From Alphaproteobacteria bacterium (GTDB lineage Bacteria; Pseudomonadota; Alphaproteobacteria; CAAGCB01; CAG-977): a stretch of DNA of 64,000 bases. Where the stretch lies: the NCBI GenBank assembly GCA_017616015.1, contig JAFZYY010000015.1:23787-87786 (forward strand), read 5' to 3'. The notes beneath the pieces are model-generated. The model was not told the DNA's origin, did no database searches, and saw only the letters and a list, made by a program, of their open reading frames with translations. Shown piece by piece: positions 1,691-48,512 of this stretch; position 1 is the first letter of the stretch; each line of letters starts with the position of its first letter. The translations under genes and the position numbers were made by a program.

Positions 1691-2986
1691 TTAAAGCCGT
1701 TCAATCCGGATCATACAGGGTTTGCTGACAACGCTTTCCAACCCTTCAATCCGGCGCAAAGCAGAAACAACAGCTTTTTCTTTGGATTTATGGAAAGTCA
1801 TAATCAACGGCACGACACCGCCGGAAGTCTGGCTACGCTGAAGCATTGAAGCAATAGACACGTTTTCATCGCCTAAAATACGGGAAATATCCGCGACAAC
1901 TCCGGGACGATCGCGCACTTCGAAACGGACGTAATATTCGCCCTCCCGTTCGTCCAAAGAAACAACGGGAACCGGTTTGACTTCCTTATTCGCAACCGCC
2001 AACAACGGACCGCCGCGATGCATTGCCGCGTCCGCAATATCGGCCACAACGGCGGAAGCCGTCGGCCGTTCGCCCGCGCCACGCCCGACAAGCATGGAAT
2101 GGCCGACAAAATCGCCTTCGGTAATCACCGCGTTAAAAACGCCGTCCACATGGGCGATTTCCGCCGTCTGAGGAATCATGCACGGATAAACGTTTAAGGA
2201 AACGCCGTTGTCATAACGCCGTCCAACGCCCAACAATTTTATTCTGAAACCTAATTCTTCGGCAAAAGCAATATCCGCATCGGAAATAAAACGAATGCCT
2301 TCAATCGACATCGTCTTCAAATCAATCGGCATACCAAATGCCAGTGCGCCTAAAATGCAGGTCTTGTGCGCCGTATCAATCCCGTCAATATCAAAGCTCG
2401 GATCCGCTTCCGCATAACCTAATTTTTGCGCTTCGGCCAGAACAACATCAAAAGGCTTTCCCGTTTCGCGCATGACGGTCAGAATATAGTTGCAGGTTCC
2501 GTTCAGAATACCGTAAATTTCCGAAATTTTATTGCCGATCAAACCTTCCCGCAGCGCTTTGATAATCGGGATTCCGCCGGCGACCGCGGCTTCGTAGCCG
2601 AAGAAGACGCCTTTTTCTTCCGCCAGCTTTGCCAATTCGTTTCCGTGATGGGCTATCATCGCTTTGTTGGCAGTCACAAACCCTTTGCCCCGATTTAAAG
2701 CGGTCAGACAAATATCATGCGCTATGCCGTTTGCGCCGCCGATCAGCTCGACGATAACGTCTGCGTCCGCTTTTTCCGCCATTTCGCGGGCGTCCTGATA
2801 ACGCGCGACCGTTGCGGGCAACCCCAATTCGTCAAAACGGGCTTCGTTCAAATCCGACGCGGCAATCAATTCGATCGGCCGACCGCAACGTTTTAATAAA
2901 ATTTCTTTTTGTTCCAGCAATAATCTGGCCACACCGCCGCCGACAGTTCCCAAACCGGCGAGAGCAACACGATATACCTCTGACAT
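1691..2986 (-). CDS. hom: Homoserine dehydrogenase with C-terminal ACT domain
   Basis: Motifs GLGTVGGG, VTANKA, YEAAVAGGIP, GILNGTCNYIL, GYAEADP and GRGAG; ACT domain DRPGVVADIS. Confidence 0.97.
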   Translation of the reverse strand: MSEVYRVALAGLGTVGGGVARLLLEQKEILLKRCGRPIELIAASDLNEARFDELGLPATVARYQDAREMAEKADADVIVELIGGANGIAHDICLTALNRGKGFVTANKAMIAHHGNELAKLAEEKGVFFGYEAAVAGGIPIIKALREGLIGNKISEIYGILNGTCNYILTVMRETGKPFDVVLAEAQKLGYAEADPSFDIDGIDTAHKTCILGALAFGMPIDLKTMSIEGIRFISDADIAFAEELGFRIKLLGVGRRYDNGVSLNVYPCMIPQTAEIAHVDGVFNAVITEGDFVGHSMLVGRGAGERPTASAVVADIADAAMHRGGPLLAVANKEVKPVPVVSLDEREGEYYVRFEVRDRPGVVADISRILGDENVSIASMLQRSQTSGGVVPLIMTFHKSKEKAVVSALRRIEGLESVVSKPCMIRIERL

Positions 2987-2994
2987 AAAATCAC

Positions 2995-3813
2995 CTATTC
3001 ATCTAAAAAAATTTCAACGGAAGAATCGCTTTCGCTTAATTCCGGCTTCTTCAAAAGAATAACATCTTCCTGCGGCGGCATCAGAACAATTTTTTCCTGA
3101 ACCTCGGCGGGTTTAAGCAAAACAAAAGAAGCCTCTTCCTGATTTTTAACTCCTGTTTTTTCATTTTTCGAAACAGCAGGCGGCTTCAATAAAACGATAT
3201 TTTCTTCTTTTTCATGAGCGGGTTCAAAAGAAACACTTTTGCTGACAATTACTTCGTTCGAATCTGCGGACACGGTTAACGATGGCAAAGAATGGCCGGA
3301 CTCTTCCGCCTTTTTACCGGCAGGCGCGGAAACGACCTCGATCAGCTCAAGCTTTGTCGCTTTCGGCGCAATAATGCCGGACAGCATTTCCTCTTCCGAC
3401 ATTGCCTGAAATTCGTCTTTTTCCTGTTTTTTCACTTCCAGCGCCCGAACTTCCTGCGCTTCTCTGCGTTTCTGAGAACCGTATAAAACACCGGAGTCCG
3501 GCGCGTTAAGACCTTTGCGCAAAGATATTTTTTCTTTTGATCCGAAACGGCCGGCGTGTTCGTAAACCTGAACACGCTCTGATGGCTTGTCTTCTTTTTT
3601 CTTTACCGTTACCGCCGGAGAAGTCAAATTCAACATCTCGTCCACCGTCCGTCCCGGTTTATCGTCCGGCGTAACGGGAACCATATCGGGTTCGGGAACG
3701 ACAAAATTTTCCTCATATCCGTAAACAAGCGAATCTTCCGTAGAAGAACAAGCCCCGATCCCCAGGACAAAGGTTACCAAAACGATTCGCGCCGCTATTG
3801 AAAAAAACGTCAT
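2995..3813 (-). CDS. Hypothetical lipoprotein, low complexity, with repeated (I/V)xL(K/M)PP-like motifs near the C-terminus
   Basis: Signal peptide with lipobox IGA-C; 272-aa ORF co-oriented with hom, stop codon 8 bp upstream of the hom start. Confidence 0.65.
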   Translation of the reverse strand: MTFFSIAARIVLVTFVLGIGACSSTEDSLVYGYEENFVVPEPDMVPVTPDDKPGRTVDEMLNLTSPAVTVKKKEDKPSERVQVYEHAGRFGSKEKISLRKGLNAPDSGVLYGSQKRREAQEVRALEVKKQEKDEFQAMSEEEMLSGIIAPKATKLELIEVVSAPAGKKAEESGHSLPSLTVSADSNEVIVSKSVSFEPAHEKEENIVLLKPPAVSKNEKTGVKNQEEASFVLLKPAEVQEKIVLMPPQEDVILLKKPELSESDSSVEIFLDE

Positions 3814-3987
3814 ACCCGTTTACCTTAAATAAAATAAAACCGCTTTGATATTACAGGTACTTGTCCGAAAGAGCAAGCAAGACTTTATCGGCATAATTTT
3901 TCAGAAAACTATACAATCGACTTTCCTAAAAAATTATTTCTAAACAAATCGTTAACAAAAAAGACGTGGACAAATTAGACAAATATC

Positions 3988-4016
3988 TTGACTCGTCCTC
4001 AAAAGACTGCTATCCT
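3988..4016 (+). promoter_or_regulatory. Sigma70-type promoter for the adenosine deaminase gene
   Basis: TTGACT-17 bp-TATCCT with a TG extended -10. It is bracketed by the inverted repeat ACTCGTC (3991-3997) / GACGAGT (4017-4023). Confidence 0.5.
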
Positions 4017-4085
4017 GACGAGTTAAGAATGGATAAATGTACCAATTAAACAATCAGAGGGTGGGAATACCCCGGAAGGTGGACT

Positions 4086-5357
4086 ATGACAAACAAAGTA
4101 GATACAACGACTCTACCGAAAGTAACGTTGCATGAACATATTGAAGGCACCGTTACTCCTGAAATGGCGGCGAAACTGGCTCAGCGTCATCATGTGACTT
4201 TGCCGGACAACTTTGTTATGGCTGAAGGGCAATACGATAAAAAAGATTTCCCGAACGGTCGCTATGCTTACGATGAAAGCGATTTCTGGGCTTTCATCAA
4301 TACATATGACAGCGTTGCGGATATGATGCGCACGCCGCAGGACTATTACGACGTCACCAAAGATTATCTGAGCAAGAACGCGGCTGAAGGCGGCGTTTAT
4401 GCCGAATTAATTATCTCGCCGGCTCATATGGCAATGGAAGTCAATCCCGAAACGGGAAAAAGCGAACTGTCGGCCGCGCGTTATCGCGCCATGATGGACG
4501 CCATTGCCAAAGCGGCGCAGGAAGTCAAAGAAGAAACCGGATTGGAAACGCGCTTCATTGCGACGGGCGTGCGGAATTTAGGCGCGGAAAACGTTAAGCA
4601 GGTCGCGGAATTTATCCGTGACAATCCGCATTCCATGGTAACCGGTTTCGGCATTGCCGGAAACGAACGCGCCGGAGAATTTGATGATTTCGCGGAAGCC
4701 CTGGCTATTGCCAAAGGCGCAGGATTGAAGCTGGCTCTTCACGCCGGTGAAATTCGCGGGCCTGAAAGCATCAAAGACGCCATTCGTTTGGGCGCTTCCC
4801 GAATCGGACACGGAGTTTCCGCTCCGCAGGATCCCGAAGTCATGAAAATGTTGGCCGAGAAAAATATCATGGTTGAAGTCTGCCCGACGTCCAACCGCAT
4901 TTTGGTTACGGATTTAAAAGGCGACCTGGCCAACCACCCCGCTCGTATATTGTACGATGCCGGCGTGCGCATTTCTTTAAACCCTGATGATGCCGGCATT
5001 TTCGGTACGCATACTGGGAAAGAGCATCGCATCAGCGCCGAAAAATTCGGCTTCACAAAAGCGGAAATGATGGACATTACTTTATGCGCGATTGAAAATT
5101 CTTTCGCTGACGTTAAAACGCGCAAACAGCTTAAAGAAAACGTTTATAAAAAAATGTCCGAAGAAGACCGCAAAGAATTGCGTGATTTAGCAGCTAACGC
5201 GAAAAATCCCGTTTTAAAGAAACGCTTGGAAACGCGTGTGGCGGAAAGCGAGAAAGTCGCAAAAAAGCTTGAAATCCAAAAACGCCGGACAAAAGCTTTG
5301 AATTCCATAAAAGCGACAAAAATGGCAATAATCAACAAAAAATCGGCCACACGATAA
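4086..5357 (+). CDS. add: Adenosine/adenine deaminase with a ~70-aa basic C-terminal extension
   Basis: Metal and catalytic motifs LHEHIEG, HAGE, RIGHG, EVCPTSN and SLNPDD are intact. The extension after the catalytic barrel ends in ...KMAIINKKSATR. Confidence 0.9.
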   Translation: MTNKVDTTTLPKVTLHEHIEGTVTPEMAAKLAQRHHVTLPDNFVMAEGQYDKKDFPNGRYAYDESDFWAFINTYDSVADMMRTPQDYYDVTKDYLSKNAAEGGVYAELIISPAHMAMEVNPETGKSELSAARYRAMMDAIAKAAQEVKEETGLETRFIATGVRNLGAENVKQVAEFIRDNPHSMVTGFGIAGNERAGEFDDFAEALAIAKGAGLKLALHAGEIRGPESIKDAIRLGASRIGHGVSAPQDPEVMKMLAEKNIMVEVCPTSNRILVTDLKGDLANHPARILYDAGVRISLNPDDAGIFGTHTGKEHRISAEKFGFTKAEMMDITLCAIENSFADVKTRKQLKENVYKKMSEEDRKELRDLAANAKNPVLKKRLETRVAESEKVAKKLEIQKRRTKALNSIKATKMAIINKKSATR

Positions 5358-5363
5358 GAAATG

Positions 5364-5393
5364 AAAAAAACCGCTGAAAATCAGCGGTTTTTT
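5364..5393. terminator. Bidirectional intrinsic terminator
   Basis: A7-CCGCTGA-AAA-TCAGCGG-T6 between convergent genes. Confidence 0.85.
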
Positions 5394-5426
5394 ATTGCCT
5401 AAACACTATACGCGTTTAATAGAGAG

Positions 5427-6332
5427 TTATTCCTTTTCCGGAGTATATTCCAAAGGCGGTTCGTCTTTAAACTTATCCACCCACAGCATAATGTGCTTTT
5501 GAAGCTGCAGTTCTATTGCGGACTTATCTTTAATCTTCTCTTTAAACCGTTCTTCAAAGCTTTTTTTATGCAGACGACAAGGCGATAATTTAGAAAATGA
5601 AACAAAATATTTAATATGACGCAACGCCGTATTGCCGAAGTGTAATTTATCTTTGACTTTAAAACGTCGGGATTCCGCGTCTGCAGCATACCTGCTTGTC
5701 AGCATAAAATCGACTTCGCCGGAAAGCAATTTACGAAAAGCGCTTTCCGCACCGTCAACGACTTCCAACTTTGTATCCGTCGGCAAAGATCCGCGAATTA
5801 ACGGCTCTATGACTTCTTCCCGGCGGATAACGCCCTTCAGTCCTTTCAGCTCGGAAAGATCCCGGACATCAATGGTCTTAGTATTTCTGGACACGACAAT
5901 AAAAGGATTACCGAAATACGCCGGATAAACATAATCCTGACCGGATTTCGCTTCATCGACATAATACGTTATAAACGAAAAAGCCGTATTGCCGCGCAAC
6001 AAAGCTTTTTGCGTTTGCTGAAAATCATCGAAAACAATATTTTTCATTTTCACGATCTTCAATTCATCAGCCGTTTCTTTCACAAGATCGACAATCAAAC
6101 CTTTATATTCTTCCTGCCTGTCTTGCGGATCCGGGACTCCCTCATTTATAACTTCAGTCCACGAAAACGGCGGATAATTCTTAATGCCTACGATTGAAAA
6201 CCGCCGATCCGATTCTTCTCCCCCGCAAACAATCAGAGGATCTTTTCCTCTTCTTGCCGGAGCCGCATAAACCTGAACACTACAAAGAAGCAAACAGAAA
6301 AAAATCATCGAACAAAACTTAAATCGCTTCAT
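5427..6332 (-). CDS. Periplasmic amino-acid-type substrate-binding protein (SBP family 3)
   Basis: Signal peptide from MKRFKF (6332; the ORF track extends to 6461). Motifs NYPPFSW, YKGLIVDL, DLSELKGLKG and LLSGEVDF. Confidence 0.8.
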   Translation of the reverse strand: MKRFKFCSMIFFCLLLCSVQVYAAPARRGKDPLIVCGGEESDRRFSIVGIKNYPPFSWTEVINEGVPDPQDRQEEYKGLIVDLVKETADELKIVKMKNIVFDDFQQTQKALLRGNTAFSFITYYVDEAKSGQDYVYPAYFGNPFIVVSRNTKTIDVRDLSELKGLKGVIRREEVIEPLIRGSLPTDTKLEVVDGAESAFRKLLSGEVDFMLTSRYAADAESRRFKVKDKLHFGNTALRHIKYFVSFSKLSPCRLHKKSFEERFKEKIKDKSAIELQLQKHIMLWVDKFKDEPPLEYTPEKE

Positions 6333-6472
6333 TTTATGTTTCCTTTGAAAAAGAATTTGCGAAAATCGCTCGTCTCTTATTATTTTTAATAATTTTCTCC
6401 GTTTTAGTAAAGATTTTTGATTTTTAATTCGGATTCGGTTATCATTCCCATATTCATTCAAGGAGTTTTATT

Positions 6473-6889
6473 ATGACCGACAATCCCTATATGACCGCAG
6501 AAGCGTCCGCGTTGCCGCAAAACGAACTGGAAGCCAGAGCCCTTGTCCGGACGGCGTCCCGCCTGAACAATATTAAAGAACATTGGCCCGTAACGACAGA
6601 AGAACTTAACGAAGCACTGGATTTAAACCGAAAACTGTGGACGATTCTGGTCACCGGTGCAACGGAAGAAAGCAATCCTCTTCCGCTTGAAATCAAACAA
6701 AATATTTTCAATTTAGCCCATTTTATTTTCAAACATACCTTCGCCGTCATGGCAAAGCCTTCGGCTCAGTCTCTGGAAATACTGATCAGTATTAATATGA
6801 ATATCGCGCGCGGTTTGAACGAGCAAAGTCTGCGCCGCGCCCAACAACAGGAAGCGGAACAAAACGCGGAACAAAAGCCTGTCGAATAA
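6473..6889 (+). CDS. flaF: Flagellar biosynthesis regulator FlaF family protein
   Basis: ELEARAL...ALDLNRKLWT...NPLPLEIKQNI...LISINMNIARGL matches the FlaF pattern; GGAG RBS. Confidence 0.85.
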   Translation: MTDNPYMTAEASALPQNELEARALVRTASRLNNIKEHWPVTTEELNEALDLNRKLWTILVTGATEESNPLPLEIKQNIFNLAHFIFKHTFAVMAKPSAQSLEILISINMNIARGLNEQSLRRAQQQEAEQNAEQKPVE

Positions 6890-22765: not shown

Positions 22766-24037
22766 TTACCATTGCGGTAATTTCGGTTGCCGTTCCGCAG
22801 AAAACGGCACGCCTTCATTTAAAATCTTGGGAATAAACGGCGCGCGCAACCGGTAAGCGTCGGGCATTCTCGATCCCAACAACGGCCGCAGATACATTCT
22901 GAACGCGTCCGTCACGTCATTGCCTTCGGGCGTAATGAATTCGTCCGGCATTGTCCGCGTCTTTGCCGCGACCTGATCCAGAGGTATCAAATCGTAATCG
23001 CACATGTAAAAACCGATGCGCTTGATCGCGACCGAACCGTCCGTATTTCCCCACATTGCGAATTGAACGGCCTTTTCGCCGACTTCACGGGCTTCGCGCT
23101 GATCCACGTCGGAAACACAACCGACAAAAGAACGCTGCATATAGCCCAAAGTATCCGCGCGCACGCGCTGAATGCCGACTTTTTCCCGCAGGACTTGCGC
23201 CAAACTGTCGCCTAAAGCGCCTGAACCGGACAGCTGAATATTGCCGTGCGCGTCGCGATCGGTGTTCTTTGTCAGCTGAGTAATAATCGGCTGACCGGAA
23301 GCGTCGTGAATGCCTTCGCTGACAGCGACAACGCAACGGTCGTATTTTTCATAAACGCTCCGGACGTCCTGAGCAAATTTATCCAGATCAAATGTTCTTT
23401 CCGGCATATAAATCAAATGCGGCCCGTCGTCAGGGAACTTTTTCCCCATAGCGGCGGCGGCCGTTAAAAAGCCCGCATGCCGTCCCATCACGACGGCGAT
23501 CACCGTTCCGCCCAAAGCCCAACTGTCGCGATTCAATCCGACAAAAGCCTGAGACACATAGCGTGCGGCGGACGGATAGCCCGGGCAATGATCGTTATGC
23601 ATCAAATCGTTGTCGATTGTTTTCGGAATATGAATGCAACGGAGCTGATAGCCTTCTTTTTTGGCTTCTTCGCTGATGATACGCGTCGTATCCGCAGAAT
23701 CGTTTCCGCCGATATACAGGAAGTAACGAATATCATGCGCCTGCATCACGCGAAGCATCTGCTGACAATACTTCAAATCCGGCTTATCGCGTGTCGTCCC
23801 CAGAGCGGAAGAAGGCGTGCTCGCGACCATTTCCAGATTATGCGACGTTTCGCTGGACAAGTTGACCAGATCTTCGTTTACAATGCCGCGCACGCCGTGC
23901 ACCGCGCCGTAGACCAAATCCACGCGATTGAACTTGCGCGCTTCCAAAACGACGCCGACCAGAGACTGATTAATCACCGCCGTAGGGCCGCCGCCCTGAG
24001 CCACCAGCAGTTTTCCTTTTATTTTTTCATAGGGCAT
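22766..24037 (-). CDS. pfp: Pyrophosphate-dependent 6-phosphofructokinase
   Basis: QGGGPTAVIN, GGNDS (Asp at the PPi-specificity position), PKTIDND and MGRHAG. Confidence 0.88.
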   Translation of the reverse strand: MPYEKIKGKLLVAQGGGPTAVINQSLVGVVLEARKFNRVDLVYGAVHGVRGIVNEDLVNLSSETSHNLEMVASTPSSALGTTRDKPDLKYCQQMLRVMQAHDIRYFLYIGGNDSADTTRIISEEAKKEGYQLRCIHIPKTIDNDLMHNDHCPGYPSAARYVSQAFVGLNRDSWALGGTVIAVVMGRHAGFLTAAAAMGKKFPDDGPHLIYMPERTFDLDKFAQDVRSVYEKYDRCVVAVSEGIHDASGQPIITQLTKNTDRDAHGNIQLSGSGALGDSLAQVLREKVGIQRVRADTLGYMQRSFVGCVSDVDQREAREVGEKAVQFAMWGNTDGSVAIKRIGFYMCDYDLIPLDQVAAKTRTMPDEFITPEGNDVTDAFRMYLRPLLGSRMPDAYRLRAPFIPKILNEGVPFSAERQPKLPQW

Positions 24038-41615: not shown

Positions 41616-42393
41616 CACACATATTGTCGCGCAGATACGCCCAAGCGTCTTTGTTCGGCGCGGAGATCAAATGATTAGCTCCGACAAACGGCGTATAGTC
41701 GGTTCCGTCAACGTAAGCGGTATAACCGCCGGCCTCGGCATGAAGCATTATGCCCGCCGCGTGATCCCACGGTTTAATAATCTTGGAACGGTAAGCGGAA
41801 TAATGCGCCCCGCCGGAAATAATCATCATATAACCGAACGATGCGCTACCCCACCAAGCGGGTTGCGGCAAGCGGGAATCTTTAAAAGCGACGCGACGCC
41901 CGACCGAACCGGTCATCTGATAAAATTCCTTAACCTCGGCAACTTTCAGGCGCTTGCCTTCATACCACGCGCCGCTGCCTTTTTCGCCCATAATCATTCG
42001 TTTAAAGACGGGATTATACAGCCAGCCTGCCACCGTTTCGCCTTTATAGACCAAAGCGACAACCACGCCGATTTCAGAGCGTCCGTAAGCGAAATTCATT
42101 GTGCCGTCGATCGGATCAATCACCCAAACGGGCTGTTCCGCTTTCAGACAATTCAAAACAGTGGGATCCCGAAAAGCGGCTTCCTCGCCGACGACAAGAG
42201 CTTCCGGCAAAAGAGCTGTCAGTTCCGCCGTTAATCTTTTTTCGGTCTGTGTATCCGCCGTTGTCACGTAATCTTCCGAAGAATTTTTCGTATCGACATC
42301 GGATACAGACAAATGATTGAAACGGGGCAGGACTTCCTGTTCGGAAATCGTTTTAATAATTTCGGCCACCTGATGAAGATCGGGACTATGCAT
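41602..42393 (-). CDS. Inositol monophosphatase family protein
   Basis: VGEE, WVIDPIDGTMNF and PWDHAAG. Confidence 0.92.
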   Translation of the reverse strand: MHSPDLHQVAEIIKTISEQEVLPRFNHLSVSDVDTKNSSEDYVTTADTQTEKRLTAELTALLPEALVVGEEAAFRDPTVLNCLKAEQPVWVIDPIDGTMNFAYGRSEIGVVVALVYKGETVAGWLYNPVFKRMIMGEKGSGAWYEGKRLKVAEVKEFYQMTGSVGRRVAFKDSRLPQPAWWGSASFGYMMIISGGAHYSAYRSKIIKPWDHAAGIMLHAEAGGYTAYVDGTDYTPFVGANHLISAPNKDAWAYLRDNMCAKAA

Positions 42394-43669
42394 AAATCAC
42401 CTGTGGAAAGTTGTTTTGAAACTTTGCGGCGTCTGCAGGGTCAAGGCGGACACGCACATGGCAAATCTGATCTGCGTCATGACGTTCCAACACCTCGCCG
42501 ACACGATATAAATACGCTAAAGCGGCACCGTCGGCAACAGAAATATTGACATTAATCTCCAGACGTCCCGCCGCCAGAGACTTTTCCAACAATGCCAGCA
42601 AATCCGGGATTCCCTCACCCGTCACGGCGGAAATCAACACTTGCTTTTCCTGACGGGAAACCGCGCTTTGCAGAGCCGAACGTTCCTGTTTGTCCATCAA
42701 ATCGGATTTGTTCAAAACTTCGATTAATCCCTGATCAACCTGCTTTGACAAACCCAAAGCTTTCAGCACATTTTCGACATCGGCTTTCTGCGCCGTCGTG
42801 TCGGGGTGGGAAATATCCCGGATATGAAGAATCAGAGACGCTTCCAATACTTCTTCCAATGTTGCGCGAAAAGCGGCGACCAGCTCGGTCGGCAAATCTG
42901 AAATAAACCCGACCGTATCGGACAAAATAACCTGCCGCCCCGACGGCAGTTTCAACTGCCGCATCGTCGGATCCAGCGTCGCAAAAAGCATATCTTTGGC
43001 AAAGACGTTCGCGTTCGTCAGGCGGTTGAACAAAGTCGATTTGCCGGCATTCGTATACCCGACCAAAGCGATGACGGGAAACGGCACGCGCTGTCTGGCT
43101 TTGCGATGCAAGTGGCGGGTGCGCTTGACTTCCTCCAATTCTTTTTTCAGCTTGACGATGTTGTCGGTGATCACGCGGCGATCAAGCTCGATCTGCGTTT
43201 CGCCCGGACCGCCCAGAAAACCTTTGCCGCCGCGCTGACGCTCCAGATGCGTCCACCCGCGCACCAATCGCGAGCGCTGATAACTCAGATGCGCCAGCTC
43301 GACCTGAAGCACGCCTTCTTTCGTGCGGGCGCGCTCGCCGAAAATTTCGAGGATCAGAGCGGTGCGGTCGATGACTTTGCATTGCCACAGCTTTTCCAAA
43401 TTGCGCTGCTGAATCGGGGAAAGAGCCGTATTTACCACAGCCAGCGTGATTTCGTTTTCCTTAATGACGTCGCGGATTCGTTCAGCCGCGCCTTTGCCGA
43501 TATACAGCGCCGCGTTCAGCCGGCTTAATAAAACGGATTCTGCCGCAACGACGGTCAGGTCTATTGCGGCAGTCAGATTTTTAATTTCTTCCAATCCCGC
43601 CCGATCGGAACGTTCCGTGTCGGTTTTTCCCTTTAAGACGGGATTCAGAACAAAAGTCTTTTCAGACAA
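42386..43669 (-). CDS. hflX: Ribosome-splitting GTPase HflX
   Basis: GGPGETQIELDRR, GYTNAGKST, FATLDPT, DTVGF and NKSD. Confidence 0.97.
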   Translation of the reverse strand: MSEKTFVLNPVLKGKTDTERSDRAGLEEIKNLTAAIDLTVVAAESVLLSRLNAALYIGKGAAERIRDVIKENEITLAVVNTALSPIQQRNLEKLWQCKVIDRTALILEIFGERARTKEGVLQVELAHLSYQRSRLVRGWTHLERQRGGKGFLGGPGETQIELDRRVITDNIVKLKKELEEVKRTRHLHRKARQRVPFPVIALVGYTNAGKSTLFNRLTNANVFAKDMLFATLDPTMRQLKLPSGRQVILSDTVGFISDLPTELVAAFRATLEEVLEASLILHIRDISHPDTTAQKADVENVLKALGLSKQVDQGLIEVLNKSDLMDKQERSALQSAVSRQEKQVLISAVTGEGIPDLLALLEKSLAAGRLEINVNISVADGAALAYLYRVGEVLERHDADQICHVRVRLDPADAAKFQNNFPQVIYA

Positions 43670-43680
43670 AGACAGCTTTC

Positions 43681-43938
43681 CTATTTTGTTTCGGCTTCGG
43701 CTTCCGTTCCCTCTTCGTCAAACAAAGAAACGGGAACCGACGGCATAATCGTCGACACGGCATGCTTGTAAACCAGCTGCGTATGACCGTCGCGGCGCAA
43801 AAGCATCGAAAAATTGTCAAACCAGGTAATAATGCCCTGAAGCTTGACGCCGCAGATCAAATAAACGGTTACCGGTGTTTTTGTTTTCCGCAGGTGATTT
43901 AAAAACATATCCTGCACATTTTGATTTTTATCAGCCAT
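43681..43938 (-). CDS. hfq: RNA chaperone Hfq
   Basis: QDMFLN, GVKLQG and [10 protein letters not shown]. Confidence 0.97.
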
Positions 43939-43983: not shown

Positions 43984-44643
43984 TTAATCGCAAGAGTAAA
44001 GAACTGACAACAGTTCTTCGCAATTTTTTATCGTCAGCACATCGGAACCGTCTTTGTTTTCCTTAGCCATTCTGACGCGCAGGCAACCGGAAACGCGCGC
44101 GCATTCCATATCGGCGTCTCCGTCGCCCACAAACCAGACGGGAGCGGATAATTTTCCGTTTTCATACGCGATTCCGGTTCCTTCAAGCGCTTTAAAGACC
44201 GGATCGGCGGCCGGTTTATCACGTTCGGCGTCTCCCGCGCCGACAACGGAATAAAAATAAGACGACCACCCTAAATGATCTATTTCGGCGCGCAGAATCG
44301 AACTTGTTTTATTACTGACGATTCCGACGCAACCCGTTTTTTGAAAAGCAAGTTCGACGACTTCGCGCGCTTTGTCAAACGGAGTCAGCATCGTCAGGTG
44401 ATGCTCGCGGTAAGCGTCCAGATAGACCTGTTTGGCTTCTTCCCACTTATCGCCGAACAGATCGGGAAACGTTTCGCGCAAAGACAATCCCGTCAGTTTC
44501 TGATATTCCTCCATGGAATATTCGGGCAGACCGTAATGCGCCTGCAAAACGCAATACGCCTTATACAAAATCGGCGTCGTGTCCATCAGCGTGTTGTCCC
44601 AATCGAACAGAATCGCTTTCGGGGAAGGATATGTTACGATCAT
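43984..44643 (-). CDS. HAD-family hydrolase (phosphoglycolate phosphatase-like)
   Basis: FDWDNTL, SNK, KPAADP and VGDGDAD. Confidence 0.9.
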   Translation of the reverse strand: MIVTYPSPKAILFDWDNTLMDTTPILYKAYCVLQAHYGLPEYSMEEYQKLTGLSLRETFPDLFGDKWEEAKQVYLDAYREHHLTMLTPFDKAREVVELAFQKTGCVGIVSNKTSSILRAEIDHLGWSSYFYSVVGAGDAERDKPAADPVFKALEGTGIAYENGKLSAPVWFVGDGDADMECARVSGCLRVRMAKENKDGSDVLTIKNCEELLSVLYSCD

Positions 44644-46016
44644 TAGAAAAACTCCAGTCCGACGGAAAACATTTTTTCAACCTGCTTGACTGATTCCGCG
44701 TCAGCGAACAAAACAAGCCGATCGTCTCTTTCAATCACGGTATCGCCGCGCAACGGCAACGGCGTTCCGTCTCTGACAATCGCGCCGATAATCACGCCGG
44801 CAGGCAGACGCACGTCGCGCAGAGCTTTGCCCGCATATTCGAACGTGTCGAATACGTCGGCTTCCAAAACTTCGCACAACCCCGAACGAATCGAATAGGC
44901 CGCGTAAATCTTTCCGCGGCGGACGTGCTGTAAAATAGAGGACACCATAATGTCTTTCGGATCGATGATCACGTCAATTCCCAGATTGACGACCAACTGC
45001 GAATAAAGCGGCTTTTCAATCACGGAAACGGTTTGTTCCACACCGTACCTTTTGGACATCAGCGATGCCAGAATGTTGTTTTCGTCTTTCGAGCTGACGG
45101 CAATGACCGTTTCCACGATGTCGATGTCGGCTTCCTCCAATAAAACGGTATTCAGGAAATCTCCGTGAATGACGGTCGTATCGGTCAGCGTTTCGGCCAG
45201 AAACTTGGCGCGCTCCTCGTTCTCCTCAATCAAAGTCACGTGCATGTGAGACGCTTTCTCCAGATAGCTGGCCAGATACAGCCCGACATTATTGCCGCCC
45301 AGAATCAAAATGTTCTGCGCCCTTTCCTGATCGCGGCCGAACAATGTCAGAATACGGTGCACGGATTCGGACGGCACGATCACATACACGTCGTCACCCG
45401 CGCAAATGCGCGTGTTGCTGTCCGCGATGATCAGTTTTGAATCGCGCACCAGAGCCGCCACGACCGCATTCACGTCGGGAAAAAGCTCGGTCAACTGACG
45501 CAAAGGCGTATTGATCATCGGGCAAACGTCGTCGCAATGAATGCCTAAAAGATACACTTTGTCCATTGCCAGAGGAATGACTTCAAACGCGCCCGGCAAA
45601 GAAATGTTGCGCCGGATCGAACGCGCGATTTCGACTTCCGGCGAGATAACGACGTCAATCGGCAAAGCGTCGTGAGTATAAAATTTGCGCCATTTCGGGT
45701 TCGTGTATTCGTTCGACCGCAGACGCGCGATCTTCATCGGCACTTTAAACAGCGAGTTCGCCGCCTGACACGTCACCATGTTGACTTCGTCGGACTCCGT
45801 CACCGCGATCAGCATGTCCGCGTCCTGCGCGTTCGCCTGTTCCAGAACGGACGGATAAGATGCAAATCCGACGACCGGCCGCACTTCCATCGTCGAAGTC
45901 AGTTCCGTTAAAAGTTCCCCGTTCGTGTCAATCAAAACGACATCGTTGCCGTCTTCCGCCAAATAGCGCGCGATCGTCGATCCGACTCGTCCCGCGCCGC
46001 ATACGATTACTCTCAT
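44643..46016 (-). CDS. trkA: Trk potassium uptake protein TrkA
   Basis: Two RCK (TrkA-N/C) pairs; CGAGRVG, AVTESDEVN and VVISPE. Confidence 0.95.
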   Translation of the reverse strand: MRVIVCGAGRVGSTIARYLAEDGNDVVLIDTNGELLTELTSTMEVRPVVGFASYPSVLEQANAQDADMLIAVTESDEVNMVTCQAANSLFKVPMKIARLRSNEYTNPKWRKFYTHDALPIDVVISPEVEIARSIRRNISLPGAFEVIPLAMDKVYLLGIHCDDVCPMINTPLRQLTELFPDVNAVVAALVRDSKLIIADSNTRICAGDDVYVIVPSESVHRILTLFGRDQERAQNILILGGNNVGLYLASYLEKASHMHVTLIEENEERAKFLAETLTDTTVIHGDFLNTVLLEEADIDIVETVIAVSSKDENNILASLMSKRYGVEQTVSVIEKPLYSQLVVNLGIDVIIDPKDIMVSSILQHVRRGKIYAAYSIRSGLCEVLEADVFDTFEYAGKALRDVRLPAGVIIGAIVRDGTPLPLRGDTVIERDDRLVLFADAESVKQVEKMFSVGLEFF

Positions 46017-46318
46017 TTTCTTTTCCGTTTCCTGTACAGAGGCACAATCTCCGTTTTTTCTTTTTCAATCAACTTGTCGTCCAGATTCAACCGGCGCATT
46101 TTTTTCAGCAAAGTGTTCCGGTTCAACCCCAAAATTTTTGCCGTTTTCAGACGATTGCCCTGCGCGACTTCCAACGTGACGGAAATCAGGCGGCGTTCGA
46201 CTTCGTCGATCACAGCGTCATAGACGTTCGTCAGTTCCACCGCTTCCGCCGTTTTGGCATAAAAGCGACGCAGATACTTTTCCACGACCGCTCCCAATCC
46301 CTCATTTTGATTCGTCAT
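46013..46318 (-). CDS. Stand-alone Fis-type HTH protein resembling the C-terminal domain of NtrC
   Basis: VYDAVIDEVERRLI...GNRLKTAKILGLNRNTLLKKM; overlaps the dusB stop and the trkA start. Confidence 0.85.
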   Translation of the reverse strand: MTNQNEGLGAVVEKYLRRFYAKTAEAVELTNVYDAVIDEVERRLISVTLEVAQGNRLKTAKILGLNRNTLLKKMRRLNLDDKLIEKEKTEIVPLYRKRKRK

Positions 46319-47282
46319 GTTTCCCGCCGAAAAAATCCCGTATCAGAGCCCGCATTGCCTCCGGTTCGTCCGTTTCGTTGATTAAACGGCGAAACGCCGC
46401 GCTGCCCGTTAAGCCTAAAGAATACCACGCAATATGCTTTCGCGCGATAAAAACCGCCTTATGTCCGTAATATTTTTCCATTTCATCGAAATGGTCAAGC
46501 GCCAAAGCCCCCAAATCATCGACAACAGGCGGTTTTCCGCCGTTTAAAAAAGCGGAACACTCTGCCAAAACCCAAGGTTTTCCCAACAGTCCCCGCCCGA
46601 TCATCACGCCGTCGGCACCCGTTTCGCTTAAACATTGCTTTGCCTGTTCCGGCGTGCGGACGTCCCCGTTCGCAATCACGGGAATATCAAGCGCCCGTTT
46701 CAATTCCGCAACGGCGCCCCAATCCGCTTTGCCCGAATAGAACTGCGTCCGTGTTCTGGCGTGCAAAGTCACCGCCGTAGCGCCGGCGTCCCGCATTCTT
46801 TTGCCGAAATCCGAGTATGTCAGGGAATCCTCGTCCCAGCCCGAGCGAAACTTCACCGTCACGGGCAAACGGACAGCGGTGACGACGGCTCTGACGATTG
46901 ATTCCGCCAATTCGGGCGTATTCATCAGCGCCGCGCCGCCGCCGGCTTTGACAATCTTTGCGACGGGGCAGCCCATGTTGATGTCAATAAGCTGCGCGCG
47001 CTTCGTTTTTTCGACGATCCGAGCCGCTTCCGCCATAACGTCGGGCTTTGTCCCTTCCAGCTGCACGGCAACAGGCGCGTCCGTTTCTTCGCAAAGCGCC
47101 ATTTGCCGCGTCTGTTTGTGCGCATGAACCAAAGACGCCGCCAATACCATTTCCGTATGAAGCAACTCTTTGCCGAAGCGTCGGACTATCCGGCGGAAAG
47201 GAGCGTCCGTCACGCCTGCCATCGGCGCGCCGATAACGGGGGAAACGCTTAAATTTCCTATTTTTAACAAAGCGGACGTCAT
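46302..47282 (-). CDS. dusB: tRNA-dihydrouridine synthase B (NifR3)
   Basis: APMAGVTD, IDINMGCP, VTVKFRSGW, HARTR, NGDV, MIGRG and ARKHIAWY; start at MTSA (47282). Confidence 0.95.
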   Translation of the reverse strand: MTSALLKIGNLSVSPVIGAPMAGVTDAPFRRIVRRFGKELLHTEMVLAASLVHAHKQTRQMALCEETDAPVAVQLEGTKPDVMAEAARIVEKTKRAQLIDINMGCPVAKIVKAGGGAALMNTPELAESIVRAVVTAVRLPVTVKFRSGWDEDSLTYSDFGKRMRDAGATAVTLHARTRTQFYSGKADWGAVAELKRALDIPVIANGDVRTPEQAKQCLSETGADGVMIGRGLLGKPWVLAECSAFLNGGKPPVVDDLGALALDHFDEMEKYYGHKAVFIARKHIAWYSLGLTGSAAFRRLINETDEPEAMRALIRDFFGGKHDESK

Positions 47283-47351
47283 CTTCCTCTTTTCTAAAAC
47301 GAAAATCTGTTTTACTCTTGGTTTGGCAGAATTTAACAGGAGGGACAATCC

Positions 47352-48512
47352 ATGGTCAAGGGGGCTGTTATCATCGTCGCCGCCGGCAGAGGACACCGCT
47401 TCGGCGGGGAACTGCCGAAACAGTACAGAACGATCGGGGGACAGGCTGTTTTAAGGAAATCTCTGGCCGTGTTCTGCGCCCACCCGTCGATCCGGTACGT
47501 CCGCGCGGTCATTCACCCCGACGACACGGCGCTGTATCAATGCGCGGCGGAAGGTTTGCCCGTCCTGCCGCCCGTATTCGGCGGTCCCACCCGTCAGGAT
47601 TCCGTCCGTCTGGGATTGGAAAGTCTGAAAGAAGAAGCGCCCGACTTTGTGCTGATTCACGACGGGGCGAGACCGTTTGTCGATTTCGGCGTGATCAACC
47701 GCGTGATTGCGGAAATCAAAGAACATCAGGGGGCTATTCCCGCCCTGCCCGTCACGGACACGATCAAAGCCGGAACGACGGAAAACGGGAAAACGATCAT
47801 CACACGCACGGTGGATCGCGCGGGATTATGGCGCGTGCAGACGCCGCAGGGCTTCCCGTACGGGGAAATTCTCGCCGCGCACGAAGCCGTCAAAGGACAG
47901 GAGCTGACCGACGACGCCTGCGTCGCCGAAAAAGCCGGTATGACCGTCGTTCTGACAAAAGGCAGTGAGGACAACTTCAAAATCACGACGCAGGAAGATT
48001 TAGTTCGCGCCGAATTGCTGTTAAAAGGCAAAGGAACGGACATTCGCACGGCAACGGGTTTCGACGTGCACAAATTCTGCGACGGCTCTTTTGTCACGCT
48101 TTGCGGTGTTCAGGTGCCGCATGACAAAGGATTGGAAGGACACTCCGACGCCGACGTCGCTTTGCACGCGTTGACGGACGCTCTGCTGGGCGTTATCGGT
48201 TCGGGTGACATCGGACTGCATTTTCCGCCGTCCGACATACGCTGGAAAGGCGCTGATTCCGTGATATTCCTGAAACACGCCGTTTCTTTGGTGAACGGTC
48301 TGGGCGGCAGGATTTTGAATGCGGACGTTACAATCATCTGCGAACGCCCGAAAATCGGCGCACACCGTCTGGAAATGAGCGAAAAACTCTCGGAAATTTT
48401 AGGTGTTTCCGCCTCTCGCATCAGCATTAAAGCGACAACGACGGAACAGCTCGGCTTTACGGGACGCAAGGAAGGCATCGCCGCGCAAGCCTGCGTCAGC
48501 GTTTCTTTCTAA
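47352..48512 (+). CDS. ispDF: Bifunctional IspD/IspF
   Basis: AAGRGHRFG, PKQY, IHDGARP and QTPQGF, followed by GFDVH, HSDADV, GDIGLHFP and KATTTE. Confidence 0.96.
   Translation: MVKGAVIIVAAGRGHRFGGELPKQYRTIGGQAVLRKSLAVFCAHPSIRYVRAVIHPDDTALYQCAAEGLPVLPPVFGGPTRQDSVRLGLESLKEEAPDFVLIHDGARPFVDFGVINRVIAEIKEHQGAIPALPVTDTIKAGTTENGKTIITRTVDRAGLWRVQTPQGFPYGEILAAHEAVKGQELTDDACVAEKAGMTVVLTKGSEDNFKITTQEDLVRAELLLKGKGTDIRTATGFDVHKFCDGSFVTLCGVQVPHDKGLEGHSDADVALHALTDALLGVIGSGDIGLHFPPSDIRWKGADSVIFLKHAVSLVNGLGGRILNADVTIICERPKIGAHRLEMSEKLSEILGVSASRISIKATTTEQLGFTGRKEGIAAQACVSVSF

Follow-up and report, generated by a model that had tools for sequence, protein, structure and literature searches.

Here, we describe a small gene that lies between dusB and trkA in a gut alphaproteobacterium with a genome of 2.09 Mb (98% complete). 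The stretch of DNA analyzed, which we refer to as "the window", is 64,000 nt long and covers positions 23,787 to 87,786 of contig JAFZYY010000015.1 (assembly GCA_017616015.1). The gene encodes a protein of 101 amino acids (aa) and overlaps both of its neighbors: the end of dusB and the ATG of the small gene overlap by 17 nt, and the stop codon of the small gene and the start codon of trkA share the bases ATGA (4 nt overlap). Together, these overlaps account for only 21 of the 306 nt of the gene. The Shine-Dalgarno sequence is weak, the C-terminal end of the protein reads RKRKRK, and the public annotation is "hypothetical protein". Pfam HTH_8 (PF02954, "Bacterial regulatory protein, Fis family") matches residues 37–77 with an E-value of 2.8e-12 and 46.6 bits (cut-off 22). 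In Alphaproteobacteria, the dusB-ntr cluster usually has ispDF on its left, and here ispDF does lie on one side, with trkA-HAD-hfq-hflX on the other, as judged from Pfam and NCBIfam matches. An earlier note on this DNA, made from the sequence alone, had described intact alphaproteobacterial flanks around an open reading frame (ORF) that has its own ATG, overlaps dusB and trkA, and keeps an NtrC-type helix-turn-helix (HTH). The flanks, coordinates and overlaps agree with that description, as do the HTH_8 match and a score of 88 bits against a profile of NtrC C-termini. The place of the small gene is exactly where ntrB-ntrC-ntrY-ntrX lie in other Alphaproteobacteria, as had also been noted. The gene is probably what is left of ntrC at this place, and its product may be a DNA-binding protein that resembles Fis.

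We refer to the family of the window genome as "f1"; in our genome set, this family makes up its whole order and comprises 28 genomes of four genera. Genomes G063 and G262 were left out of the analysis. The ORF is found in 23 of the 24 other family genomes, across the four genera, with 52–93% identity; the sole family genome without it is 89% complete and consists of 220 contigs. Gene order is equally stable. The arrangement dusB-small gene-trkA occurs in 20 of 20 loci and in 4 of 4 further loci with wider flanks (24 of 24 in all), the latter reading ispDF<>dusB-small gene-trkA-HAD-hfq-hflX. Within the genus of the window genome, identity is 68–93% for the small protein, 63–82% for DusB, and 87–96% for TrkA. 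The ratio of nonsynonymous to synonymous substitution rates (dN/dS, Nei-Gojobori) of the small gene has a median of 0.105 (range 0.056–0.21), based on the 49 of 91 within-genus pairs that were usable, with dS between 0.7 and 2; the remaining pairs were saturated. Constraint is stronger on residues 1–80 (dN/dS 0.072) than on the tail (0.22). The earlier note had also drawn attention to the basic tail. The tail is present in the window protein and in most genera, but it is not universal, since the proteins of genus g2 are 86 aa long and tail-less. The small gene is maintained, under purifying selection, and fixed in the whole order.

Table 1. Features of the locus in the window (strand relative to the sequence as read)
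Feature	Position	Strand	Basis and remarks
hflX	42386..43669	(-)	Pfam GTP-bdg_N/M + HflX_C; right flank
hfq	43681..43938	(-)	Pfam Hfq E 4.4e-30; right flank
HAD-family hydrolase	43984..44643	(-)	Pfam HAD_2 E 5.1e-34
trkA	44643..46016	(-)	NF007031 570.8 bits
Small gene (101 aa)	46013..46318	(-)	ORF with ATG start; Pfam HTH_8; stand-alone NtrC-C-terminal/Fis-type four-helix protein
dusB (nifR3), tRNA dihydrouridine synthase B	46302..47282	(-)	Pfam Dus E 1.5e-95; TIGR00737 370 bits; the start at 47282 (ATG, MTSALL) is the one that aligns with relatives
AT-rich perfect dyad TAAAAC-N8-GTTTTA	47295..47314	.	Between promoter-like site and dusB ATG
Sigma-70-like promoter match upstream of dusB	47330..47359	(-)	9/12 positions; consensus match only
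ispDF	47352..48512	(+)	Pfam IspD + YgbB; divergent from dusB, left flank

No match to NtrY_N was found in the window genome or in any of the 28 genomes of the family, and no NtrC/NtrX-type activator was found in the 98%-complete window genome. Only two HTH_8 domains occur in that genome, and its single true sigma-54 activator adjoins fliN/fliH-like genes (i.e., it is flagellar). The sigma-54 gene, rpoN, is kept, as is glnB-glnA. There is no gene between dusB and the small ORF, so ntrB is absent from the locus; ntrB was not searched genome-wide. The small protein has no Pfam match to Response_reg, and hence no NtrC receiver with its phospho-acceptor Asp, and it has no match to PF00158, the sigma-54-interaction AAA+ domain. 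Without an AAA+ domain, it cannot activate sigma-54 promoters. The loss of the NtrC receiver and AAA+ domains and of ntrB, ntrY and ntrX, which the earlier note had reported, is therefore borne out, for ntrB at the locus. The small protein is a member of Pfam HTH_8, and it is neither a curated Fis equivalog (see below) nor an NtrC, the latter for want of both a receiver and an AAA+ domain. The window genome encodes GapR and has six HU/IHF genes, so the small protein fills no obvious gap in the set of nucleoid proteins; the idea that it stands in for a missing GapR was set aside for the same reason.

Sequence comparisons place the small protein closest to the C-terminus of alphaproteobacterial NtrC. 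We compared the f1 proteins with a profile built from full-length alphaproteobacterial NtrC only, with no small protein in it, and with profiles of Fis from Gammaproteobacteria ("gamma Fis"), of "short Fis" (77–93 aa, the NF002517 type, which we take to be the betaproteobacterial form), and of alphaproteobacterial NtrX. For 19 f1 proteins, the median score was 88.1 bits for the NtrC C-terminus, 56.1 for short Fis, 45.1 for gamma Fis, and 22.2 for NtrX. Identities of the window protein follow the same order, with medians of 38% to alphaproteobacterial NtrC C-termini (32–43%), 30% to short Fis (25–38%), 27% to gamma Fis (24–35%), and 20% to NtrX. Its best NCBIfam matches are NF002517 (50.1 bits, cut-off 122, E 3.1e-13), NF001659 (47.5 bits, cut-off 99), and the NtrC model TIGR01818 (43.2 bits, cut-off 558.6). 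Neither of the curated Fis cut-offs is reached, and a genome-wide search with NF001659 gives nothing at E 1e-12. Positions 395–462 of TIGR01818 match residues 4–76 of the small protein, and residues 5–79 align to residues 401–475 of a 484-aa NtrC, directly past the AAA+ lid. In a scan of species-representative genomes, the records returned were almost exclusively alphaproteobacterial, and the best 80 matches outside the family were all so; at 78 of these 80 loci the match was not in a stand-alone small frame, being mostly in full-length NtrC frames, with five cut by a contig end. A search among 473 candidates for longer proteins with an f1-like C-terminus found none at E 1e-8, which is weak evidence.

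Phylogenetic trees were computed for the HTH region and for DusB. With 110 rows and 94 columns, the HTH tree unites the f1 proteins in one clade (99, starred) on a long stem of 1.25 changes per column, and 13 of 14 other alphaproteobacterial small proteins group with 37 alphaproteobacterial NtrC C-termini (91). Gamma Fis (85–92) and short Fis (86–88) form separate groups that exclude f1, and the NtrX C-termini form a starred clade of their own without f1 (95–100). The tree of DusB, with 61 rows and 337 columns, is more decisive: a branch with starred support of 100 separates all alphaproteobacterial rows, f1 included, from the gamma and short-Fis rows, and f1 is sister (98, starred) to G026, a genome with the arrangement dusB-small gene-ntrY-ntrX. 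Three groupings were put to approximately unbiased (AU) tests: all alphaproteobacterial small proteins in a single clade (p 0.189), the DusB proteins of all small-gene lineages in a single clade (p 0.107), and f1 in a clade with gamma Fis (delta lnL 15.2, p 0.187). Because none of the three is rejected, the tests do not fix the number of independent truncations. The HTH alignment is too short to reject f1 with gamma Fis, and so the case for an origin in place draws on gene order, on the profile scores and on the tree of DusB. On these grounds, we consider it quite likely that the small gene arose in place from ntrC, as the earlier note had proposed. That proposal is supported by the synteny, the profile scores, the alphaproteobacterial DusB and the intermediate arrangements described below; the HTH tree by itself would leave a grouping with gamma Fis standing.

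Other Alphaproteobacteria have arrangements that lie between the full cluster and the f1 locus. The canonical cluster, dusB-ntrB-ntrC-ntrY-ntrX-trkA, is present in G032. In G038 (locus L035, 4152-5243), a 363-aa NtrC-like protein with AAA+ and HTH_8 domains and no receiver is encoded between ispDF and ntrY-ntrX. That locus contains neither dusB nor ntrB, and represents a different route of Ntr reduction. An HTH_8 gene of 80–144 aa adjoins ntrY in 12 genomes of 10 other families, with genome sizes of 1.2–2.5 Mb (G026, G029, G344, G031, G215, G036, G039, G045, G141, G168, G194, and G075). In 11 of the 12, dusB is immediately upstream of the small gene, and nine have ntrX after ntrY; counted by family, these figures are nine and eight of the 10. 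In family f8 (G031/L032 and G215/L158), the small gene is followed by ntrY, with no ntrX in the stretch examined, and this NtrY may be an orphan kinase. The small gene is thus not a curiosity of one genome: it is found in the whole order of the window genome, and at least 10 further families have genes like it. Judged from gene order and sequence, the collapse of ntrC to its tail appears to be general in small-genome Alphaproteobacteria, with the f1 lineage as its most reduced and most diverged form. No account of an alphaproteobacterial gene that derives from NtrC, stands alone and follows dusB was found in a literature search whose coverage takes in few of the subscription journals.

Related small genes also appear in public records. 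Two named records of metagenome-assembled genomes (MAGs; the L062/L098 pair) have the small gene directly after dusB, and the one labeled Micavibrio also shows ntrY. NCBI files the Micavibrio-labeled record under Bdellovibrionota. The other MAG is labeled Candidatus Paceibacterota, and its alphaproteobacterial-type dusB followed by the small gene probably reflects an error of binning or labeling. In metagenomes, 367 small relatives of 57–184 aa were found at E 1e-10 or better, although some may be fragments; the JGI label for these proteins is "GlnG", and the NCBI label is "hypothetical protein". In a library of 1.84 billion representatives, the f1 type forms one cluster at E 1e-30 or better. 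Three proteins from other 50% clusters (P0180, P0182, and P0190) have a recognition helix of the f1 type (NTLL/NTFL-KKMR) and a K/R-rich tail, and the f1 type may thus extend beyond its order. In seven proteins of ~195–210 aa (P0187, P0189, P0193, P0195, P0209, P0210, and P0213), the small protein matches two separate stretches; these proteins may be tandem duplications of Fis-like domains. Two further candidates, L161 and L162, were rejected as small genes and left out of all counts, being frameshifted or fragmented NtrC. In L161 (G403), ntrC lies in several frames (2891-4663), as do ntrC and ntrY in L162 (G356, 67% complete; 2732-6744); in both cases, either decay is in progress or the assembly contains errors.

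The predicted structure of the small protein resembles Fis. An AlphaFold2 model has a mean predicted local distance difference test (pLDDT) score of 79.3, with helices at residues 8–23, 32–51, 56–63, and 67–76, followed by a further, low-confidence helix at 81–90 and the basic end. The model contains the four-helix core of Fis, i.e., the dimer helices A and B and the HTH helices C and D. The top Foldseek matches are all Fis (Pseudomonas aeruginosa 6m10; E. coli 1FIP, 1ETY, and 3IV5), with TMt values of 0.67–0.92 and root-mean-square deviations of 1.2–3.0 Å, the best of them lying at TMt 0.83–0.92 and 1.2–1.6 Å, followed in the ranking by NtrC-type DNA-binding domains; because Fis sequences are present in the input alignment of the model, this fold match is not independent of homology. 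A homodimer is predicted with a score of 0.68 (best control 0.00), with contacts that agree at least 87% between runs and a partner pLDDT of at least 72; since Fis dimers have already been solved and may be remembered, this result shows likeness and is not proof. In the calibration, which covered 30 proteins solved as pairs and 23 solved as single chains, 20 of the former and 1 of the latter came up to the 0.68 mark. The predicted interface comprises residues 7–20, 29–51, and 61–65. The N-terminal arm of Fis, a mobile beta-hairpin needed for invertase stimulation, was not found: helix A begins after only seven residues, and DSSP assigns no strand to the model.

The residues of E. coli Fis helices C and D that contact DNA are, we take it, N84, R85, T87, R89, K90, and Q74. 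In the alignment, N66, R67, T69, and K72 of the small protein keep N84, R85, T87, and K90, while L71 replaces R89 and R56 replaces Q74. These two changes, together with an arginine in place of the helix-B proline, are common to the whole f1 clade. The other small proteins are more conservative, with the helix-B proline in all but two of 14 and the recognition-helix arginine in 13 of 14. The protein probably works in the manner of the Fis core, as a dimeric HTH DNA binder encoded after dusB, and we regard dimeric DNA binding as quite likely.

Upstream of dusB, the promoter hexamers TTGACC and TAAATT are conserved across the family. The dyad listed in Table 1 is conserved or nearly so in the family loci, and the genome has no second exact copy of it. 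A search for a regulon with this dyad found no genome-wide enrichment of one-mismatch copies (31, versus 30 in the control). The dyad may be an auto-operator, and could equally be an element of the 5' untranslated region or RNA leader. In Sinorhizobium meliloti, dusB-ntrBC is described as one mRNA, with repression of the dusB promoter by NtrC (PMC10746234). In Caulobacter, NtrC is described as both activating and repressing, with a chromatin immunoprecipitation motif that resembles that of E. coli Fis and with sites that overlap those of GapR (bioRxiv 10.1101/2023.06.06.543975). Downstream of the small gene, the start of the HAD hydrolase gene overlaps the trkA stop codon by 1 base, and the gene lies between trkA and hfq. 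This position after trkA is kept in all four wide-flank family loci (L036–L039, genera g2–g4), and the HAD hydrolase gene is probably in the same operon as trkA. The ispDF flank is also present in L036–L039, as well as in L041, L155, and L035. Terminator-like signals are not in excess in the region (4 found, 7.7 expected).

The explanation that we consider likely overall is that the small gene is a remnant of ntrC, preserved in place, that encodes a dimeric, sigma-54-independent DNA binder. The starting state would have been the ancestral cluster ispDF<>dusB-ntrB-ntrC-ntrY-ntrX-trkA. Deletion of ntrB and of the receiver and AAA+ parts of ntrC would have left the last ~80 residues with a new ATG, with ntrY-ntrX lost later or simultaneously; this order of deletions is one that we infer. 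The small gene would now be translationally coupled, with dusB upstream and trkA downstream. Its product, consisting of two dimerization helices and an HTH, would most likely form a Fis-like homodimer and bind DNA without sigma-54, either to repress or as an architectural factor; it would probably also control its own synthesis at the dusB promoter. A global role in the nucleoid is conceivable, but we are more doubtful than confident about it. Several observations weigh against this explanation. Profile scores vary with the depth of the profile (40 rows versus 13). The HTH tree (92–94 columns) leaves f1 in a deep polytomy, the long f1 stem makes its placement uncertain, and a clade with gamma Fis survives the AU test. 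The f1 recognition helix reads NRNTLL, but its second L is an arginine in Fis, in NtrC and in all but one of the 14 other small proteins; with its contact residues changed, the protein may differ from Fis and NtrC in DNA specificity or even affinity. Lastly, with no enriched copies of the dyad elsewhere, no regulon is visible.

Other explanations account for some of the same facts. One is a decaying, non-functional remnant, open by chance or through the overlap with its neighbors; the gene is small, overlaps both neighbors, has a weak Shine-Dalgarno sequence and is publicly named "hypothetical protein". Nevertheless, the frame has stayed open across four genera, in 23 of 24 genomes, at identities down to 52%, dN/dS is 0.105 at near-saturated dS in a gene of which so little is shared with its neighbors, and conservation within the genus equals or exceeds that of DusB. 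We therefore reject this reading, to which the selection data leave practically no room. The earlier note had named decay in relatives as an outcome that would speak against its proposal, and the relatives show the opposite. It had named a position within gamma Fis as another, and in the phylogeny f1 lies outside the gamma Fis group. That position bears on a transfer, in which a dusB-fis pair or fis alone would have come from a member of the Gamma- or Betaproteobacteria and taken the place of the ntr genes. The best sequence matches in the PDB are Fis (6m10 with E 8.9e-10; E. coli Fis with ~1e-7), the two best NCBIfam models are Fis models, every Fis examined follows dusB too (11 short Fis and that of E. 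coli), and the AU test (p 0.187) is compatible with a common clade. Against this, f1 DusB falls on the alphaproteobacterial side of a fully supported split, beside an alphaproteobacterial lineage (98, starred); both flanks, ispDF and trkA-hfq-hflX, are alphaproteobacterial; the NtrC profile is ahead of gamma Fis by ~40 bits and of short Fis by 32; both Fis groups exclude f1; and NF001659 is without a match at E 1e-12. Transfer is thus improbable.

An origin from the neighboring regulator gene is less probable still. A single deletion from the end of dusB into ntrX could have left the C-terminus of NtrX, and in a canonical cluster (L040) ntrX does lie directly upstream of trkA, the gene whose start the small gene overlaps. 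However, the f1 proteins score a median of 22 bits against the NtrX profile versus 88 against that of NtrC, identity to NtrX is 20%, the NtrX C-termini form a separate starred clade (95–100), and nine other genomes hold a small NtrC-like gene alongside ntrY-ntrX. A different question is what the protein binds. It may be a specific repressor of nitrogen genes at NtrC operators (e.g., of glnBA) rather than a general, Fis-like architectural protein. Consistent with this, glnB-glnA is kept, NtrC is described as repressing as well as activating in Caulobacter and S. meliloti, and recognition helices of the NtrC kind are retained in the remaining alphaproteobacterial small proteins. The f1 proteins, by contrast, have lineage-specific changes in the recognition helix and in helix C and have added a basic tail, and no dyad is common to the dusB leader and other loci. 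We consider a dedicated nitrogen repressor unlikely, if by no means far-fetched; it overlaps with the explanation that we favor, the ntrC remnant that encodes a dimeric DNA binder, and differs from it only in the breadth of targets.

In 1998, Morett and Bork reportedly proposed that Fis is a cut-down NtrC that derives from the alphaproteobacterial nifR3-ntrB-ntrC operon. To our knowledge, that proposal had no living intermediates. A graded series can now be seen, from the full cluster, through a receiver-less NtrC and dusB-small gene-ntrYX, to dusB-small gene-trkA, and this series makes the hypothesis that Fis arose from NtrC testable. The series also shows Fis-type proteins to occur outside Gamma- and Betaproteobacteria. 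The public names "hypothetical protein" and "GlnG" mask both points, and, in genomes without an Ntr response regulator, this annotation gives the false impression that there is one. Taken together, the observations allow a broader and much more tentative reading, which we think may well prove wrong: truncation of a dusB-linked ntrC could be an easy, repeated path in shrinking alphaproteobacterial genomes, and the Fis of Gamma- and Betaproteobacteria could share the same collapse in place, with no special transfer. In that reading, f1 would have gone furthest, with all Ntr two-component genes lost, DNA contacts remodeled and a basic tail acquired, and its protein would be a new, independently evolved nucleoid-associated protein.

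Fis of Gammaproteobacteria (E. coli dusB-fis; 1ETY, 3IV5; NF001659) is likewise ~100 aa long and encoded directly after dusB, and shares a core of four helices that ends in the HTH (TMt 0.82–0.92, root-mean-square deviation 1.2–3.0 Å); the helix A/B dimer is predicted for the small protein. The small protein differs in sequence (24–35% identity; 47.5 bits versus a cut-off of 99), in the absence of the N-terminal arm, in having L at Fis position 89 and R at position 74, in its extra helix and basic tail, and in its alphaproteobacterial flanks. Short Fis is similar in that it has no long N-terminal arm and follows dusB in 11 of 11 loci. Nevertheless, the small protein reaches only 50.1 bits against a cut-off of 122 and is 25–38% identical to short Fis, which forms a separate group (86–88) and has its DusB on the gamma side of the 100-support split.

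Fis-like proteins have also been described elsewhere. Phage lambda NinH is described as a Fis mimic (PMC7166090); it is also a small, stand-alone, Fis-like homodimeric DNA binder outside the classical fis locus, but it is phage-encoded and has no link to dusB. Two reports on Zymomonas refer to a regulator of the "Fis family", one to ZMO1124 in proteomics (PMC6190654), the other to a candidate abundant DNA binder (PMC11162768); this regulator may correspond to the dusB-linked small gene.

The closest relative in sequence is the C-terminal domain of alphaproteobacterial NtrC (32–43%, 88 bits), which has the same layout of helices A–D and the same position relative to dusB and ispDF. The small protein differs from NtrC in lacking the receiver, the AAA+ domain and an NtrB partner encoded at the locus, and in its changed signature residues. 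The other dusB-linked NtrC-tail genes, from the 12 genomes of 10 families, share with f1 the collapse of ntrB-ntrC into an HTH_8 gene of 80–144 aa. They differ in that ntrY adjoins in all 12 and ntrX is present in nine, and in being closer to NtrC (median 43%, up to 70%). In f1, ntrYX has been lost too, the branch is long, and a basic tail has mostly been acquired.

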